NCBI GenBank assembly: GCA_965279035.1
Contig: OZ257142.1
Coordinates: forward strand, 896,001 to 960,000
Source of the DNA: Bacteroidia bacterium
Lineage (GTDB): Bacteria > Bacteroidota > Bacteroidia > M30B66
Direction of reading: 5' to 3'
DNA length: 64,000 bases
Part shown: positions 1-22,458 of the stretch, one piece after another
Position numbering within the stretch: the first letter of the stretch is position 1
How the letters are laid out: the number at the start of each line of letters is the position of its first letter
Position numbers and translations under genes: made by a program
The notes under the pieces: generated by a model
Databases searched by the model: none
What the model saw: the letters and a program-made list of their open reading frames with translations, nothing else
What the model was told of the DNA's origin: nothing

Positions 1-1089
1 GCTAAAAAGAATTTAGATAATTCGGCAAACTATGCCCTTGTTTATATTCCTAAAGGACAGGATGATAATCTTTTACTCACTCAAAAGAGCATCAAACTGT
101 ATTCGAAAGAGCAAGTGAGTTTGAACGTGAAAACGTATATCGCCAATCAAATTGAAAAGCAGATTGAGCGTGCCATGCTTAAATCGAGTGGGGTTGATAA
201 AGATTTGGTTGCAAGTATCGAAAAGGCAGTTCACGTTACGATTTCAACCGTTACTTCGGATCAAAAAAGCAAAAGTGATGTGAGTAATGATGTAGAAGTA
301 AGTACCATTTTAGGGGCTATTTCGGGATTTCTGATTTACTTTTTCATCTTCTTTTTTGGTGCTCAGGTAATGCGCGGAGTAATTGAAGAAAAAAACAACC
401 GCATTGTTGAAGTAATCATTTCGAGCGTAAAACCCTTTCAATTAATGATGGGGAAAATCATTGGAATTGCATTAGTTGGACTTACACAGTTTTTACTGTG
501 GGTAGTACTTACTGGAACACTCTATTCTACTTTCTTGAATACTGTTGTAAAAGATAAATATAGTGCGGAGAAAATTGAAATGCTCAAAGTAAAAAGTCCT
601 GATGGAACAGCTGTAGAAAACATTGATCAGATTACAGAAAACAGGGAAGTCATTGATGGAATTAATAGTGTCAATTGGGCTTTAATAATCCCCTGTTTCA
701 TATTCTACTTTCTCGGAGGATATCTCTTATATGGTGCGCTTTTCGCCGCTGTTGGAGGTGCTGTTGATACCGATTCGGATACTCAACAATTTGTTTTACC
801 CATTACAATTCCTCTCATTTTCTCATTCATTATGGCTCAAACTGTATTGAATGATCCAACTGGAGTTATGGCTCGTTGGCTTTCGATTATTCCATTCACA
901 TCACCCATTATCATGATGGTTCGATTACCTTTTCAAGTTCCTGTTTGGGAGCTCGTTTTATCCATGGTGATGCTAGTTTTGGGTTTTGTTTTCACTACGT
1001 GGATGGCCGGAAAAGTATACAGAACCGGAATTCTTATGTATGGAAAACGCGTAACATGGCGCGAAATGGCTCGTTGGCTTCGTTATTAA
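1..1089 (+). CDS. ABC-2 type transporter permease (NatB/YhaP-like), 5'-truncated by window edge
   Basis: Frame is open from base 1; contains the VMRGVIEEKNNRIVEVIISSVKPFQLMMGKIIG motif and multiple TM helices. Confidence 0.85.
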   Translation, partial: AKKNLDNSANYALVYIPKGQDDNLLLTQKSIKLYSKEQVSLNVKTYIANQIEKQIERAMLKSSGVDKDLVASIEKAVHVTISTVTSDQKSKSDVSNDVEVSTILGAISGFLIYFFIFFFGAQVMRGVIEEKNNRIVEVIISSVKPFQLMMGKIIGIALVGLTQFLLWVVLTGTLYSTFLNTVVKDKYSAEKIEMLKVKSPDGTAVENIDQITENREVIDGINSVNWALIIPCFIFYFLGGYLLYGALFAAVGGAVDTDSDTQQFVLPITIPLIFSFIMAQTVLNDPTGVMARWLSIIPFTSPIIMMVRLPFQVPVWELVLSMVMLVLGFVFTTWMAGKVYRTGILMYGKRVTWREMARWLRY

Positions 1090-14002: not shown

Positions 14003-14614
14003 TTATTTGATCAAACTAAGTCCTTCTAATGCAGAGCTATCGTCGGGACGAATTAATAGAGCTTTGGTAAATAGTACTTTAGCTTCACGAGTTCTTCCCA
14101 TTTGAAGATAACTCCATGCATTCATCGTAACACTATCATAATCGAATGGATAAAGATTCATCACTCGTTCGAAATATTTTTGTGCTGTTGGATAATCTTT
14201 ACGACTATAATAAATCATCCCTGTTCTGAAATTAACCAAAGAATTTTGAGCATCTATTTCTAGAACCTTTTTGTACTGAACAATCACTTGATCCCAATTT
14301 CCTAAGCCCGAAGCAGGTAGAACATAGCCTAATTTTGCTTCAATCGAATAGGGTTTTAAGCTGATTGCATTTTGGTAATAGGTCATGCTTTGTGTAAACT
14401 GCCCTGCTTCATAACACAAATAGCCCAAGCGAATATTGATTTCATAGGAATCTTCACGATAAACTTCCTTCATGATCGCTATCGCTTTGGTGAATTCAGA
14501 TTTTGTTTCAAGTGAATAACTTGCTTTGAATGCAGCTATTTCTTTATCGTCGGTTGCCCATGCAGAAAAAGAAAATTGAAGTCCGAAAAGCAGTAGGAGC
14601 AGAGCATTTTTCAT
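14003..14614 (-). CDS. Exported tetratricopeptide repeat protein (last gene of the PqqD/ATP-grasp operon)
   Basis: Signal peptide (FSAWA) then about 5 TPR-like helical repeats (RLGYLCY, YQNAISLKP, YKKVLEID, FERVMNLYP, KALLIRP). Confidence 0.85.
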   Translation of the reverse strand: MKNALLLLLFGLQFSFSAWATDDKEIAAFKASYSLETKSEFTKAIAIMKEVYREDSYEINIRLGYLCYEAGQFTQSMTYYQNAISLKPYSIEAKLGYVLPASGLGNWDQVIVQYKKVLEIDAQNSLVNFRTGMIYYSRKDYPTAQKYFERVMNLYPFDYDSVTMNAWSYLQMGRTREAKVLFTKALLIRPDDSSALEGLSLIK

Positions 14615-16867: not shown

Positions 16868-18226
16868 TTAGAGTTTGAACGACTTTAAATGAGCAGGCAT
16901 TTCTTCTTGAGCATTGAGGTCGTCGACCGTTTCTTTCCTTCGGATGATATGCGTTTTGCTATCCATATCAATCAAAACCACATTGGGTCTCATCGCAATG
17001 AATTGCATCCATTGAGTCATATTGTATGCACCAACTGTGTGTATCACCACTTGATCGCCTTTGTTCAATGGTGGCAAAGTTACATTTTCCCTAAGTACAT
17101 CGATGTTCATGCACAGTGGTCCGTAAATCACAGCGTTTTCGGTATGATGTCCGCTGGCTTGTACTGGAGAAATGCGGTGGTCATACCAAAAGGAAGTAAA
17201 CAAAAGATTCACGCCCATATCCATCACCAATGCGCGTCGTCCATCGGAAAGGCGTTTGTTTGCGATAACTGATCCTGCCAAATATCCAGCTTCATCAATC
17301 AGCGCTCTTCCCGATTCAAGAATGAGCATGGGGAGATCTTCTTTTGTAAAACCAGCATTTAACAAGGTTGTGCAAATGGCTTCAGCGTAATCATCAAAGT
17401 TTGGTATCACATCACTTCCCGGAAGAAACGAACCTTTGAGTGTATTTTTAGAAGCGAAACCACCACCTAAATCAACGTATTCGATCGATTTGTTGTGATG
17501 CTTTTTTATTCCTAATGCCAAATCGGCTAGCTTGTTTGCAGCAACAGCGTAGGCATTTGGCGAAAGCATGAATGTTCCAATATGACAATGCAAGCCAACC
17601 AAATCCATTTTATCGGTAAGGATGATTTTATTGATCGCATCCCAAGCTTGACCGTTTTCATAGTTAAATCCAAAACGATCCCACATTGGATAAATGCCTG
17701 TGTCCATATTCACACGAATAGCAACACGTGGGCGTTTTTTGGTTGAATTACAGATTTCGATAATCTGATAGAGTTCATCCAAATGGTCGATGTGAATCAA
17801 TGAATCGTTATCAATCGCTAAACGAAGATCGCTTTCCGTTTTTTCGGGACCATTGAAAATGATATTCTTTCCTTTAACGCCATTTCCAAGAGCTTTTTTG
17901 TATTCGAAAATGGAAACTACTTCTGCCCAAGAACCTTCTTGATGAAAAATATTACAAACAGCATTGATGTAATTCGTCTTGTATGACCAAGCAAATTGAA
18001 CCTTCGGGTAACGAGATGTAAATGCACGACGGGCGTCTCGGTATGTTTGACGAATTTTTCGTTCGGAAATAATGAAAACAGGAGATCCATATTTATCAAT
18101 CATCTCTTTTACCGAAACTCCGTCAATTTGACTTACTGGATCATGTAAAGAACGTGTTCCAAATTTATTGCTTACGCCTCCATTGAGTGAAGTTATAATT
18201 GGGCGTTCGTATCTAAGCTTTGTCAT
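16868..18226 (-). CDS. Fold-type III PLP-dependent decarboxylase (LysA/ODC superfamily), substrate unknown
   Basis: YGSPVFI, SYKTN (PLP lysine), EVVS, FNGP.K, HCHIG, DLGGGF, ESGR, GPLC, GAY. Confidence 0.9.
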   Translation of the reverse strand: MTKLRYERPIITSLNGGVSNKFGTRSLHDPVSQIDGVSVKEMIDKYGSPVFIISERKIRQTYRDARRAFTSRYPKVQFAWSYKTNYINAVCNIFHQEGSWAEVVSIFEYKKALGNGVKGKNIIFNGPEKTESDLRLAIDNDSLIHIDHLDELYQIIEICNSTKKRPRVAIRVNMDTGIYPMWDRFGFNYENGQAWDAINKIILTDKMDLVGLHCHIGTFMLSPNAYAVAANKLADLALGIKKHHNKSIEYVDLGGGFASKNTLKGSFLPGSDVIPNFDDYAEAICTTLLNAGFTKEDLPMLILESGRALIDEAGYLAGSVIANKRLSDGRRALVMDMGVNLLFTSFWYDHRISPVQASGHHTENAVIYGPLCMNIDVLRENVTLPPLNKGDQVVIHTVGAYNMTQWMQFIAMRPNVVLIDMDSKTHIIRRKETVDDLNAQEEMPAHLKSFKL

Positions 18227-18237
18227 TCTAGTTTGTA

Positions 18238-19281
18238 TTAAAGTTCACCAATGGTTGATATTTTCTGAAAGTCGGAGAGCGAAACAATATTGTCCCAAGA
18301 ATAGCGGACAAATAATTTCCCTATATCGTATGTTGTAAAAGGCTCAACATCTTCGCCAAATGCTAATTGCACTGCGGCTGCCGGCATATTTTGTCCACAA
18401 GCAACCGGCAAATAAACCCAAGCAGGAAAGCGCGGATTTATTTCTACGATGTACATTTTTCCTTCTTTGTCTTTGATTAGTTCGAGCTCCATTCCACCGC
18501 GCCATTTGTTGGCAGCAATGAGTGTATGCGTCATTTCGAGTAATTGAGGCTCATCGAGCGTTATGCCTGCCCAAGCTTTTCCCTTATCAGTAATGAATTG
18601 CTTTCTCATGGGAACAGCTCCAATGGTATTTCCTTTTCCATCGCCCAAGGCAGTTACATTGTATTCGTTACCATAAACGAATTGCTGAAAAATGATGGGC
18701 AAACCCCATTTCGCTTGAAGCTTATTGAAATAGGAATACACTTGTTCTTGGTTGTAAGCAATGTAGGCTTCATAGTATTTGCCTTTCACTACTACTGGAA
18801 ATTCAAATTGCTGAAGTACAGATGGAACTTCTGAAATAGAACTTACTGTGATAGAAAGCGGAACGTTCAATCCGTATTTTATTCCAAATTCAGAAAGACG
18901 GTATTTATGTCGTTCCTCAAATTGATCAATGGTAGGAAGGAATGTTTTGATTCCCATTTGATCAAGAACTGGAGCCAGTTTCATGAATGTGAAAAGCTCT
19001 GCATCGAAATTGGGAAAAATAAAATCGAGTTTCTCTTGTTGATGAATGTATTCTAAACGTAGTAAGAGATTGTCTGAACCTTCGGAAGGAAAAGGAACAG
19101 AATAACTTTTATCTACCAAATCGTGCATGTAAAGTCCGGGTTCCAAATGATCGTAGGAAAGTCCAATGATTCGAACATCTTTTCCTTTCCAATCTCTCAA
19201 AGCACGTATAACTGGAATTCCCGGTCCAGGATTATCGGTATTGTTAAGTCCCGAAACTGCAATGGTTAATTGCTCTTTCAT
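18238..19281 (-). CDS. Single-domain ATP-grasp carboxylate-amine ligase
   Basis: FPVVVKG, IFQQFVYGNEY, ELELIKD, IVEINPRF; pre-ATP-grasp domain with IFPNFDAE. Confidence 0.85.
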   Translation of the reverse strand: MKEQLTIAVSGLNNTDNPGPGIPVIRALRDWKGKDVRIIGLSYDHLEPGLYMHDLVDKSYSVPFPSEGSDNLLLRLEYIHQQEKLDFIFPNFDAELFTFMKLAPVLDQMGIKTFLPTIDQFEERHKYRLSEFGIKYGLNVPLSITVSSISEVPSVLQQFEFPVVVKGKYYEAYIAYNQEQVYSYFNKLQAKWGLPIIFQQFVYGNEYNVTALGDGKGNTIGAVPMRKQFITDKGKAWAGITLDEPQLLEMTHTLIAANKWRGGMELELIKDKEGKMYIVEINPRFPAWVYLPVACGQNMPAAAVQLAFGEDVEPFTTYDIGKLFVRYSWDNIVSLSDFQKISTIGEL

Positions 19282-19529
19282 AGTTTTTCGGCTAGTTGTT
19301 GATTGAGAAGAAGTTGAATAAATTCATACAAATCCTTATCAATCGTTTTTTCATCCGTTTCGTATCGATCGACCAAGTTTTTAATGATTTCTTCTTGCGA
19401 GCGATTCTCTTTCAAGAGCTGGATGATTTCAACCCCAATTGGGTTTACTGAATATGAATCACCGGTTCCGGGATCGAAAACGAAACCGCTATCACTTAAT
19501 GCAATGTTGCTTTTTATGCGGATATTCAT
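19278..19529 (-). CDS. Stand-alone PqqD-family protein / RiPP recognition element (RRE)
   Basis: 83 aa with the PqqD pattern: beta strands (GFVFDPGTGDSYSVNPIG), then helices (IIQLL, EEIIKNLVDRYE, IDKDLYEFIQLL). Confidence 0.85.
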   Translation of the reverse strand: MNIRIKSNIALSDSGFVFDPGTGDSYSVNPIGVEIIQLLKENRSQEEIIKNLVDRYETDEKTIDKDLYEFIQLLLNQQLAEKL

Positions 19530-19620: not shown

Positions 19621-20496
19621 TTAGGGAATAATTACTTTAAGTGAGGACGGAATCATTGAAAATTGAAGTTCATTCGATTGATTTACAGGTTCTCCATCAA
19701 TATTGACTAAGCCACTTTTTTCACGAATAATTTTTACGGAATTTGAAACGAACGAGACCGTATTTACATGATTATCGATTGTTCCACGAAATAATTTGAT
19801 GGCCAATCCTGGTGCATCTTTCCAAGAACATTGTTTTAAAAGCGTGATGTGAAATAGTCCATCACTTAACATTGCTTTGGGAGCAATAAACGCATTGTTG
19901 CCGAATTGTGGACCATTGCATACAGTCATGAGAAAAGCATCCTGTTCGAATGTTTCTCCATTGATTTCAATCACTAAATGTTCGGGGCGAAACTGATTAA
20001 ACTCTTTTAGGGTGATTTTAGCGTAATTCAATAATCCTCTATTTACCGAATGATGAAACATTCCAGCAACGTGCGCGTCAAAACCAACGCCTGCCAAATT
20101 CATAAATGGAACACCATTCAAAGATCCCGTATCCATGAGAATTAATTTCCCCGATTCAATGATTCGAACGGCTTTTTCAATGTCAAAGGGAATTCCGAGG
20201 CTTCTTGCTAGACCATTGCCCGAACCCATGGGAATGATACCTAATGAAGTATTCGAATGAATGAGTTGTGATCCAATGATATTGATCGTTCCATCACCAC
20301 CAACAGCTATCACCGAATTTATTTTTTCAGCAATGGCTTCCTGTGTTTTTTCGCGTGTTTCTGAAACAGAAGTGCTAAAACATATATCAACATCCAAGTG
20401 AGTTTTGATGCATGCTTTTTCAATCAATGCTGGAATGCGCGTTTTGTTTTTTCCACCCGAAACGGGATTGATTATAAAACGAACACGCTGCTTCAC
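19621..20496 (-). CDS. YegS/DAGK-family lipid kinase
   Basis: IINPVSG, AVGGDGT, IPMGSGNGLARSL, GVGFDA, NGPQFG, IDGE. Confidence 0.93.
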   Translation of the reverse strand: MKQRVRFIINPVSGGKNKTRIPALIEKACIKTHLDVDICFSTSVSETREKTQEAIAEKINSVIAVGGDGTINIIGSQLIHSNTSLGIIPMGSGNGLARSLGIPFDIEKAVRIIESGKLILMDTGSLNGVPFMNLAGVGFDAHVAGMFHHSVNRGLLNYAKITLKEFNQFRPEHLVIEINGETFEQDAFLMTVCNGPQFGNNAFIAPKAMLSDGLFHITLLKQCSWKDAPGLAIKLFRGTIDNHVNTVSFVSNSVKIIREKSGLVNIDGEPVNQSNELQFSMIPSSLKVIIP

Positions 20497-21308
20497 TTCG
20501 ATTCTTTTGCGAATTGTTGACGAATAACTTGAAGTAATTCATCATTCATCAATCCATTACCAGCAAGTAATTCTTTGCCAAACAGATACTCATTTCCACC
20601 CGAATAATCGGAAACTGTACCGCCTGCTTGTTGAACGATGAATGTTCCAGCAGCAACATCCCATGGACTTAATCCATATTCATAAAAAGCTTCGAATCTA
20701 CCGCAGGCAACGTAAGCTAAATCGATAGCTGCTGATCCCAATCGTCTCACTCCGTGTGAGTTTCTAAGTAGATGCATAAACAAACGCATCCATTCTTCCA
20801 ATCGGCCTTCATCCCGGTATGGGAATCCGGTAACGATAAGCGAATCTTTCAACCGATTCCGATTGGAAACACGAATTGGCTTGTTGTTGAGATAGGCATT
20901 TCCGCCTGCAACGGCATGAAAGCATTCATCGTTACTTATTTCATAAACCACCCCAAGAATAACTCGTTCGTTTTGCATCAATGCGATACTGATGCAATAG
21001 AGTGGCAAGCCATGAATAAAATTGGTTGTTCCATCAATAGGATCAATCACCCAGCGAAACTCTTTATTTTCTTGAGCAATGGTATTTTCTTCGGTGATAA
21101 AACCAGATTCGGGAAGTAAAATACTCAACTCACTCACTAGCAGAGTTTCGGCTGCTTTATCGACATAGGTCACGAAATCGTTTAAGCCTTTTGATTCGAT
21201 GCTCGATTCGGTAAGACGTTTTTGTTCCAGTTGAATGAACTTTCCAACTTCACGACTAATGGCGCAAACCTCAGCACACAGGGATTCAAGATCTTCAGGA
21301 AGCGACAT
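20493..21308 (-). CDS. suhB: Inositol monophosphatase family protein
   Basis: DFVTYVD, WVIDPIDGTTNFIHG, RRLGSAAIDL, WDVAAG; ATG at 21308 preferred. Confidence 0.9.
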   Translation of the reverse strand: MSLPEDLESLCAEVCAISREVGKFIQLEQKRLTESSIESKGLNDFVTYVDKAAETLLVSELSILLPESGFITEENTIAQENKEFRWVIDPIDGTTNFIHGLPLYCISIALMQNERVILGVVYEISNDECFHAVAGGNAYLNNKPIRVSNRNRLKDSLIVTGFPYRDEGRLEEWMRLFMHLLRNSHGVRRLGSAAIDLAYVACGRFEAFYEYGLSPWDVAAGTFIVQQAGGTVSDYSGGNEYLFGKELLAGNGLMNDELLQVIRQQFAKESK

Positions 21309-22458
21309 GATGTTGTTTTTTTTCAAGATTGCGTGTATACCAAATTCCAATAACACCCAAAATCATGAGAGTACACGAAATAATTTGCGCTTGAGTAATG
21401 CCTAATCCACCAATGTGATATTGCGTATTAACGCGAATTGATTCAATTAGAAAACGTTCCATTCCGTTCAGAATGAGGTAGATGCTAAACAATAAACCCG
21501 GCGTTGTTATTTTCTTGCGGATGGACCAAAGCACTAAAAACAGAATGATTGCCATGACTGTTTCGTAGAATGATGTTGGGTAAACAGCTTGTGGTAATTC
21601 GTGGCACCAGCGTCCAACACATCCGGGAATGGGAACTCCTTCGTTATTTACGTTATGCGGAAACTTAAACGCCCACATCCAGTCAGGTAGAAAACTCATC
21701 CAATTGGGTTTGGGAGATGAATTCACAATTCCCCAATCTCCATCGCCCGACATCATGCAACCAATTCGACCAATACCGTATGAGAGCATCAAGGCTGGAG
21801 CGGCTGCATCGGTAAGGTGAATGGCGGGTAAACCATTCTTGCGACCATACCGAATAATGAGAATGGCGGCAACGATTAATCCACCATAAAAAGTAAGTCC
21901 TGAAAATGAGAGTAATGCACCTATTGGATCGGCCATGAATTCTGCCGGATTTTCAAGATTGTGAAAGATTTTCGCACCCAATAATCCACCGATCACACCA
22001 AAGAGAATGATATTTCCAACATGATCTTCGGCTTTCATTGGGACAGAAAGCGTTTCTCTTTTGACTTTTTTCTGAGTTTCACTTTCTCTATAGCGCCAGT
22101 AAATCATGGCAGCGGCAATCAACAGTCCGCCAACAAAATTTCCTTTGGTAGATAAAAGTGTTGTTTGAGGATCGTTTACAAATTCACTGTAATTCATTGC
22201 CATATAAAAGGCTTTGAATCCGATGATGAAACCTAGAATACCTGCGATGATATAATCAGAAACCTGAGCTTCTTTCCCCACTTCAAGCATTCTTTTTCCT
22301 GTTTTGAACTGTCCGAGTTTTTCTTTTCTACGGAGCTCAAGCGTTAAAATATAGGCAGCAACGAGGAATGCGATAGCAACGAAAAAACCAAATGTTTGTA
22401 TGGGAAGAGGAAGATCGATTCCGAATGATTTCAGAAGTTCGCTAATGGTTGCGTACAT
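21295..22458 (-). CDS. lgt: Prolipoprotein diacylglyceryl transferase (long Bacteroidota form)
   Basis: GAKIFH, GLTFYGGL, YGIGRIGC, YPTSFYE, ERFLIESIR, TQAQIIS. Confidence 0.88.
   Translation of the reverse strand: MYATISELLKSFGIDLPLPIQTFGFFVAIAFLVAAYILTLELRRKEKLGQFKTGKRMLEVGKEAQVSDYIIAGILGFIIGFKAFYMAMNYSEFVNDPQTTLLSTKGNFVGGLLIAAAMIYWRYRESETQKKVKRETLSVPMKAEDHVGNIILFGVIGGLLGAKIFHNLENPAEFMADPIGALLSFSGLTFYGGLIVAAILIIRYGRKNGLPAIHLTDAAAPALMLSYGIGRIGCMMSGDGDWGIVNSSPKPNWMSFLPDWMWAFKFPHNVNNEGVPIPGCVGRWCHELPQAVYPTSFYETVMAIILFLVLWSIRKKITTPGLLFSIYLILNGMERFLIESIRVNTQYHIGGLGITQAQIISCTLMILGVIGIWYTRNLEKKQHHVAS

Follow-up and report, generated by a model that had tools for sequence, protein, structure and literature searches.

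A leader-like N-terminal tail on a fold-type III decarboxylase as the probable ligand of a lasso B1-type RRE encoded in the same operon

Background

[quoted passage not shown] The leaders of lasso peptides, the RiPP class of closest interest here, follow a rule by which a Gly stands at position +9 and a Thr at the penultimate position of the leader. The penultimate Thr is also given in the accessible part of PMC10368454. According to the available sections of PMC13381572, discrete lasso RREs recognize the motif [Y/W]xxPx[L/V/I/F/A]; a conserved Asp (D70 of LppB) hydrogen-bonds the leader Tyr both in LppB and in an actinobacterial lasso complex, Asn33 of LppB fixes the kink at the Pro residue, and a conserved Phe separates two pockets. 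The same sections describe PbaB1 as Trp-specific, with Gln79 and Gly42 in the places of the Asp and the Asn; in PbaB1 the bond is donated by the indole NH of the Trp, and LppB also accepts Trp. Here we analyze a stretch of 64,000 nucleotides from a Bacteroidia bacterium (assembly GCA_965279035.1, contig OZ257142.1, positions 896,001 to 960,000 of the forward strand; hereafter the window, in whose numbering all positions are given). An operon in the window codes for a PqqD-family RRE, an ATP-grasp ligase, a pyridoxal 5'-phosphate (PLP)-dependent decarboxylase and a membrane protein fused to an M23 peptidase. The decarboxylase starts with a tail that resembles a lasso leader, and the analysis presented below indicates that this tail is probably bound by the RRE.

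The related loci used for comparison comprise 80 genome loci, all with Bacteroidota-type metagenome-assembled genome (MAG) titles, 80 metagenome loci retrieved by using distant relatives as queries, and later genome samples, giving a total of 213 loci.

Results and discussion

The decarboxylase carries a conserved leader-like tail

The N-terminus of the decarboxylase open reading frame (ORF) reads MTKLRYERPIITSLNGGVSNKFGTRSLHDPVSQIDGVSVKEMIDKYGSP, and its residues 1-23, MTKLRYERPIITSLNGGVSNKFG, stand ahead of a LysA-like core. Since the ORF occupies positions 16868-18226 of the minus strand and starts with MTKLRYERPIITSLNGGVSNKFGTRSLHDPVSQIDGVSVKEMIDKYGSP, these residues correspond to positions 18158-18226 of that strand, the same position and sequence as given in a preliminary description of this DNA. 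The extension before the LysA core that was noted there is likewise evident from the Pfam, NCBIfam and PDB alignments, all of which start only at residue 30-35, so that residues 1 to about 30 are extra to the core. In the AlphaFold2 monomer model of the decarboxylase (mean predicted local distance difference test score, pLDDT, of 83.5) the tail is the stretch of lowest confidence, with pLDDT values of 46, 46 and 53 for residues 1-10, 11-20 and 21-30, respectively, compared to 93-95 from residue 31 onward; the tail is thus predicted to be disordered and floppy.

Examination of 161 distinct decarboxylase tails shows a pattern with two conserved segments. In the first, position 6 is always aromatic (Tyr in 144, Phe in 12 and Trp in 5 tails), position 9 is always Pro and position 11 is always Ile, Leu, Val or Met. 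The second is an N-K-F-G block in which Asn20, Lys21 and Gly23 are found in 137, 160 and 156 tails, respectively. Lys3 (146 tails) and Gly17 (145) are also well conserved; Gly16 occurs in just four tails, and the Gly-Gly pair of the window sequence is therefore not a conserved feature. Taken alone the motif is weak, since [YW]xxPx[LIVFAM] also appears within the first 30 residues of 17 of the 1371 other ORF products of at least 150 residues in the fetched loci (1.2%). That the tail motif exceeds chance is settled, at the level of sequence, by its conservation. Among the 120 closest database proteins, motif and N-K-F-G block occur together in 119, and the remaining one (P0117) is truncated at its N-terminus. 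All 80 genome loci contain the motif, as do 77 of the 80 metagenome loci when searched by regular expression; two of the three misses are over-long ORF calls that reveal YERP upon direct translation, and the third is locus L129. The tail is retained in high-GC contigs that are not of Bacteroidota type, at 46-61% identity to a proteobacterial MAG protein.

In order of decarboxylase identity, assessed with 131 representatives (clustered at 50% identity) whose match extends to the N-terminus, the motif is present in 21 of the 26 that are at least 43% identical, and in four of the 90 that are less than 38% identical, 68 of the latter having no room for a tail. By this sequence survey the tail is restricted to the near clade and fades in relatives below about 38% identity. 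An 871-residue fusion of an ATP-grasp and a decarboxylase module (P0129) displays Y-V-R-P-S-I in its linker, where the lysine of the N-K-F-G block is absent; because the same 90% cluster includes the split proteins P0276 and P0277, the fusion may be an assembly frameshift, and it was set aside as evidence for docking.

The core of the enzyme is composed of a PF02784 barrel (E-value 3.5e-29) and a PF00278 sheet domain (1.2e-14). Its best NCBIfam family is FslC, although it remains under the equivalog cut-offs of both FslC (NF041039, 235.5 versus 500) and LysA (TIGR01048, 223 versus 297.9). The nearest solved structures are FslC (7kh2, 2.3e-58) and BtrK (2j66, 1.5e-29), and LysA is also among the best matches. 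In an alignment of 68 operon decarboxylases, residues S81, Y82, K83, T84, G254-G256, E304, G306, R307, C372 and D376 are invariant; we take the Lys of the S-Y-K-T-N block and the other invariant residues to have catalytic roles.

PqqD is a lasso B1-like RRE

A profile built from 68 operon PqqD sequences was compared with the PDB, and its matches were TbiB1 (6.4e-12), TfuB1 (1.2e-6), PbaB1 (1.6e-3) and the genuine PqqD 3g2b (0.059). The AlphaFold2 model of the window protein (pLDDT 91) has strands at residues 16-19 and 24-27 (plus 3-5) and helices at 30-40, 45-56 and 60-76, i.e., a winged-helix fold. Its best Foldseek matches are the leader-bound TbiB1 (5v1v_A, template modeling (TM) score 0.88, root-mean-square deviation 1.8) and TfuB1 (6jx3_B, TM score 0.84). 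Judged from its sequence and modeled fold, the operon PqqD is a discrete, lasso B1-like RRE. The NCBIfam cut-offs for lasso PqqD chaperones are not reached (NF033530, 34.9 versus 70; NF033536, 32.5 versus 80), and no cyclase or B2 family match was found among the operon genes of the window, the other loci having been searched for the operon genes only.

The residues that contact the leader in the known complexes can be placed in PqqD by alignment. PqqD N29, I35, Y56, D66, F70 and L74 align without gaps (HMMER) with PbaB1 G42, I48, Y69, Q79, F83 and L87, and all 14 PbaB1 residues named in the available sections of PMC13381572 match the chain at a single offset. Through the G42N and Q79D exchanges and the conserved Phe described in those sections, N29, D66 and F70 correspond to N33, D70 and F74 of LppB. 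D66 and F70 also align with D70 and F74 of TbiB1, and both TbiB1 and TfuB1 have Asp in the D66 column. Throughout the 68 PqqD sequences the six residues are invariant or nearly so, and the cleft therefore appears to be under strong constraint, though no free peptide is visible in the operon. Some variation is evident at position 29, where Ser replaces Asn in four operons (L180, L216, L217 and L218), in which the Pro of the tail is retained.

Tail position 6 and PqqD position 66 change together

PqqD and the decarboxylase tail were paired from each locus that holds both, resulting in a final set of 181 operons. In all 161 operons with a Tyr tail, PqqD position 66 is Asp. In the 16 operons with a Phe tail it is Tyr (13), Ser (2) or His (1) and never Asp, and in the four with a Trp tail it is Asp (3) or Asn (1). 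One additional operon (L213), missed by the regular expression and thus outside the 181, is Tyr/Asp by eye. The pattern was present in the first 134 operons, where all 120 Tyr tails are matched by Asp66 and the eight Phe tails by Tyr (6) or Ser (2); two further genome samples contributed eight more Phe operons (Tyr in seven, His in one) together with Tyr operons, with no exception. The alignment around PqqD column 66 is ungapped and unambiguous.

In the 134-operon set we scanned the 882 columns that correspond to residues of the window proteins (83 of PqqD, 347 of the ATP-grasp ligase and 452 of the decarboxylase), and, besides the tail position itself, PqqD 66 is the sole column in which Tyr and Phe operons have disjoint sets of residues. 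Mutual information with average product correction was calculated between each of 29 tail positions and each of 430 columns of PqqD and the ATP-grasp ligase in 162 operons (about 47 effective sequences), and decarboxylase 6 with PqqD 66 ranks first of the 12,470 pairs. In view of the low number of effective sequences, all of the other pairs (e.g., decarboxylase 4 with PqqD 55, and decarboxylase 19 with ATP-grasp 228, 268 and 285) were taken as noise. The Trp-tail operons were considered as a second covariation event and discarded; since LppB tolerates Trp, their Asp and Asn residues are not informative.

The chemistry, by analogy with the crystal structures, fits the paired change: without the Tyr hydroxyl a buried carboxylate would be left partnerless, favoring a neutral residue, and the NH of a Trp could still donate a bond. 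These paired Tyr/Phe-Asp66 changes in the tail and in PqqD are new, and Tyr6/Asp66 and Phe6/Tyr66 amount to a natural double-mutant cycle. At the sequence level they suggest that PqqD, encoded two genes upstream, grips the decarboxylase itself.

Proposed docking of the tail

We infer that the decarboxylase tail (about residues 3-14, K-x-x-Y-E-R-P-x-I) is probably the ligand of the stand-alone lasso B1-type RRE of the operon. The first hydrophobic pocket would receive Tyr6, with a hydrogen bond between this residue and PqqD Asp66, and Asn29 would hold the kink at Pro9. The second pocket, of which Phe70 and Leu74 form the boundary, would accommodate Ile11, and the residues that follow the motif would add a strand to the RRE sheet. 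The preliminary description had proposed such a leader mimic for the PqqD/RRE, and the proposal gains indirect but specific support from the lasso B1-like nature of PqqD, the retained contact residues and the Tyr/Phe-Asp66 covariation. Prediction of a complex between PqqD and decarboxylase residues 1-45 gave values of 0.49, 0.51 and 0.51, compared with 0.46 when PqqD was exchanged for an unrelated protein and 0.02 and 0.00 when the peptide was replaced, values that weigh on neither side of the binding question.

Docking on the RRE would most plausibly join the ATP-grasp ligase with the decarboxylase, because translation of the RRE gene is coupled to that of the ATP-grasp gene and because the nearest characterized relatives of the decarboxylase act after a ligation step. 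The arrangement may be a plain scaffold for a pathway in which ligation is followed by decarboxylation. Otherwise, the N-K21-F-G block of the tail may be presented to the ligase. Pure scaffolding and presentation of Lys21 as an acceptor are, in our estimation, about equally probable.

Several observations weigh against the docking proposal. The assignment of LppB D70 passes through the weak profile match with PbaB1 (E-value 1.6e-3). In a tree of the 134 operons, based on the ATP-grasp and decarboxylase core (the eight Phe operons found later are outside the tree), the Phe operons form a single clade; the minimal number of changes of the tail aromatic is two (one to Phe and one to Trp), which leaves one independent pair, and the covariation is therefore a single evolutionary event. 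As a leader the tail is atypical: the motif is present, but the conserved Gly is at +11 (G17) rather than +9, position -2 lacks Thr and the tail does not lead into a core peptide. The near-invariant N-K-F-G block has no counterpart in lasso leaders and is left over by RRE docking, and more distant decarboxylases occur that start with YxPPx[hydrophobic] and lack N-K-F-G. The weight of the covariation lies in its uniqueness among the 882 columns, its agreement with crystal contacts that had been singled out beforehand and the invariance of column 66 across phyla in all other cases. The N-K-F-G block may make contact with the ATP-grasp ligase, have a function within the decarboxylase or be modified at Lys21.

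Alternative roles of the tail

The last of these roles leads to an alternative that extends docking without excluding it, namely that the tail acts as a docking handle and, in addition, as a substrate or carrier. The RRE would present Lys21 to the ATP-grasp ligase, which would link a carboxylate to it by an amide bond (e.g., that of an amino acid via its side chain), the decarboxylase would then process the attached group, and the M23 domain, acting as an amidase, would free the product. We consider this possible, if somewhat on the unlikely side. It would explain the conservation of Lys21, Gly23 and Asn20 beyond what RRE docking accounts for; FslC and BtrK, according to the titles of their PDB entries, act on side-chain-linked or carrier-linked amino acids, and FzmZ, in the accessible part of PMC13622209, is a precedent for an RRE-recruited peptide that serves as a small-molecule scaffold. 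Opposed to this, the lysine is missing from two representatives of 45-49% identity (P0122, with NTFG, and P0126, with NPF), and only about ten residues lie between Lys21 and the folded core. The preliminary description had further considered release of the tail by the M23 domain at Gly-Gly, which we reject because Gly16 is limited to the four tails mentioned above; the carrier role is thereby deprived of its proposed cleavage site. In its most elaborate form, which we judge unlikely, the decarboxylase would have its own swinging arm: the RRE would clamp YxxPxI, the ligase would load Lys21, the active site of the same enzyme would process the group and the channel-fused M23 amidase would release it at the membrane. 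Such an arm, if real, would be a RiPP-style leader/RRE system employed to give an enzyme its own carrier for small-molecule synthesis, in an operon found in several phyla.

The remaining alternatives dispense with the contact between tail and RRE, at least as its main purpose. The tail could be an internal element of the decarboxylase, such as an arm of the dimer, a lid over the active site or a regulatory segment, which resembles a leader by chance and does not touch PqqD. The frequency of the bare motif among other N-termini allows for this, the monomer model is blind to contacts across the obligate dimer, and the N-K-F-G block may well serve the enzyme; yet the covariation with PqqD is unique and top-ranked, the cleft residues of PqqD are invariant with no other peptide in sight, and generic LysA-like relatives lack the tail (see the survey below 38% identity), all of which make a purely internal role quite unlikely. 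It is also very unlikely, in our view, that the RRE in reality binds a separate and very short precursor, encoded remotely or missed, to which the tail bears an incidental or at most competitive resemblance. A precedent is available in the fosfazinomycin cluster, whose 21/22-residue YxxP precursor, according to the accessible part of PMC13622209, escaped ORF finders and was found by hand, and our scan covered only 700 nucleotides upstream of PqqD. In that interval, motif-bearing short ORFs were found on the operon strand in 13 of 152 loci versus 17 of 152 on the opposite strand, which served as control, and none of them is conserved. The 90-nucleotide gap directly upstream of PqqD in the window contains no motif-bearing ORF of at least 20 residues, which upholds the earlier remark that a separate precursor is not visible. 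There is no room for one inside the operon either, because its genes overlap or stand 7-23 nucleotides apart, and the Tyr6-Asp66 covariation ties PqqD to the tail itself. We thus retain docking of the tail on the RRE as the probable arrangement, with Lys21 presentation as its possible extension.

Composition and distribution of the operon

The genes and sequence elements are collected in Table 1. The neighbors of the decarboxylase gene (PqqD, ATP-grasp and the urea-transporter (UT)-M23 fusion) are as previously described.

Table 1. Positions of the operon genes and of the tail and RRE elements in the window.
Feature	Position	Strand	Basis
PqqD-family discrete RRE, 83 residues, lasso B1-like	19278-19529	-	PF05402, 52.5 bits versus cut-off 23.4, E-value 6.1e-14
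PqqD Asn29 codon	19443-19445	-	Invariant in the 68-sequence alignment; aligned with LppB N33 and PbaB1 G42; Asn 171 and Ser 4 of 175 distinct pairs
PqqD Asp66 codon	19332-19334	-	Invariant 68/68; aligned with LppB D70, TbiB1 D70 and PbaB1 Q79
ATP-grasp ligase, 347 residues, start overlapping the PqqD stop by 4 nucleotides	18238-19281	-	PF15632, PF02655
Fold-type III PLP decarboxylase, 452 residues	16868-18226	-	PF02784 and PF00278; ATG start
N-terminal tail, residues 1-31, extra to the LysA/FslC core	18134-18226	-	Alignment starts and low pLDDT
Y6-E-R-P9-I-I11, [Y/W/F]xxPx[I/L/V/M] leader-like motif	18194-18211	-	Conserved in 161/161 distinct tails
N20-K21-F22-G23, second conserved block of the tail	18158-18169	-	K21 160/161, G23 156/161, N20 137/161
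Urea-transporter-like membrane domain fused to M23 peptidase, 740 residues	14638-16860	-	PF03253 (residues 20-318), PF01551 (413-502)
Tetratricopeptide repeat (TPR) protein, N-terminal hydrophobic signal-like segment, last operon gene	14003-14614	-	TPR families

The order PqqD, ATP-grasp, decarboxylase, UT-M23 is constant in the 80 genome and 80 metagenome loci, and the UT-M23 and TPR genes are syntenic in most loci. The metagenome set spans high-GC contigs and includes the contig encoding a protein labeled as proteobacterial by NCBI. PqqD and decarboxylase are both present, with the five-gene order, in 182 of the 213 loci. In 28 loci the decarboxylase occurs without PqqD. A contig edge cuts 26 of these at a distance of less than 1.4 kb upstream, and in L051 and L195, which make up the remainder, the genes are scattered, with a PqqD of the same type on another contig of each genome. 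By gene order and sequence, the operon travels as a unit, including outside Bacteroidota-type genomes. Such co-inheritance fits docking but would fit any functional link equally, and therefore does not discriminate between them. As to the earlier expectation that the motif be confined to PqqD-linked homologues, the half that was checked holds, in that every motif-bearing homologue with sufficient flank has PqqD. A plasmid collection, searched for distant contexts of the decarboxylase, yielded just ordinary lysA genes of 26-30% identity.

Some loci deviate from this general architecture. In genome G001 (L051, L161, L162 and L163) the operon is scattered and all four parts are found, the decarboxylase behind dnaA and the rest on other contigs. 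In genome G090 (L195 and L197) the ATP-grasp and decarboxylase genes share one locus, where an ORF of the opposite strand separates them, and PqqD is on another contig. Locus L208 (G704) has an ATP-grasp gene with neither neighbor. Insertions and replacements directly downstream of the decarboxylase include an IF-2B-family gene ahead of UT-M23 (L049:7364-8311), an M20 peptidase in a locus that lacks UT-M23 (L063:6983-8197) and a histidine kinase accompanied by a LytTR response regulator (L033:7376-9177). Most related loci contain, between UT-M23 and TPR, an extra gene of 390-500 codons without a Pfam match (e.g., L005:9600-10814 and L045:9557-11053), which is missing from the window and from L003, where UT-M23 and TPR adjoin.

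The closest solved relative of the ATP-grasp ligase, and the sole one, is 2pn1 (2e-7). The last approximately 240 residues of the UT-M23 protein have no Pfam match. Upstream of PqqD, the YegS-type lipid kinase and inositol-monophosphatase-like genes (19621-21356) are syntenic in the three closest loci only (L001-L003), and are thus considered to lie outside the conserved operon. In L081 and L082 (4051-4851 in both), on the contig of the proteobacterial-labeled MAG protein, the PqqD domain forms the C-terminal ~80 residues of a 266-residue ORF, the N-terminal part of which is TetR-like by eye; this may be a true fusion of regulator and RRE, or the ORF may have been called too long in DNA of high GC content. 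A survey for fused PqqD domains found only two longer proteins, neither of them informative, and evidence of this kind carries little weight.

We found no description of this five- to six-gene operon in the searchable literature, supplements lying outside the search. The tail-PqqD pair provides a foothold in this operon, which occurs in several lineages; of 401 genomes sampled from one phylum, 31 have its ATP-grasp gene. If the proposed docking is correct, an RRE would have the tail of a folded enzyme as its ligand, the leader/RRE pair would be a general device for protein-protein docking, and "orphan" RREs that lack a precursor gene would be explained.

Comparison with known systems

Three described pathways share features with the operon. 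Like BtrI, BtrJ and BtrK, which reportedly take part in the side-chain chemistry of butirosin, it codes together for a small protein, an ATP-grasp ligase and a fold-type III PLP decarboxylase, and BtrK, according to its PDB title, acts on carrier-bound glutamate. Unlike that system, in which BtrI is an acyl carrier protein (ACP), the small protein is here an RRE, and any tether would be the tail of the enzyme itself. In keeping with this difference, when the operon's small protein was examined as a carrier of the BtrI/J/K or LysW/LysX kind, it matched neither the ACP nor the LysW families, and its C-terminus varies. The rhizoferrin enzymes FslA and FslC offer a second parallel: FslC, an N-citrylornithine decarboxylase and the closest solved relative, belongs to a pathway that ligates first and then decarboxylates the free amino-acid end. 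The rhizoferrin pathway differs in having no RRE, FslA is, to our knowledge, not an ATP-grasp enzyme, and FslC, the alignment of which begins at residue 32, has no such tail.

The closest resemblance of PqqD is to the discrete lasso RREs TbiB1 (5v1v/5v1u), TfuB1/FusB1 (6jx3) and PbaB1 (9x90) and to LppB-LppA of the linear polyphosphorylated peptides (LPP; 9x8z), with which it shares the small PqqD-type fold (TM scores 0.84-0.88) and the sequence family. As in the lasso and LPP systems, the ligand has the form [Y/W]xxPx[L/V/I/F/A], an Asp is available for the Tyr hydroxyl, an Asn for the Pro kink and a Phe to divide the pockets, and Tyr, Trp and Phe occur as natural variants at the first motif position. 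Unlike those systems, the motif here heads a 452-residue enzyme instead of a short precursor that contains a core peptide; a lasso cyclase, a B2 protease and a kinase are all absent from the operon, in which the RRE is accompanied by an ATP-grasp ligase, a PLP decarboxylase and a fusion of a membrane channel with a peptidase. The system would work like lasso/LPP leader recognition and yet is not a lasso system, given the lack of a cyclase, a B2 peptidase and a core, and family scores below the cut-offs. It is also reminiscent of FzmZ of the fosfazinomycin pathway, in which, as far as the accessible part of PMC13622209 describes it, an N-terminal YxxP handle recruits RRE enzymes, the chemistry takes place elsewhere on the chain and an ATP-grasp enzyme is involved. 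FzmZ, as described there, is a free 22-mer that is modified at its C-terminus and later degraded, whereas the candidate scaffold of the present operon is part of a folded enzyme.

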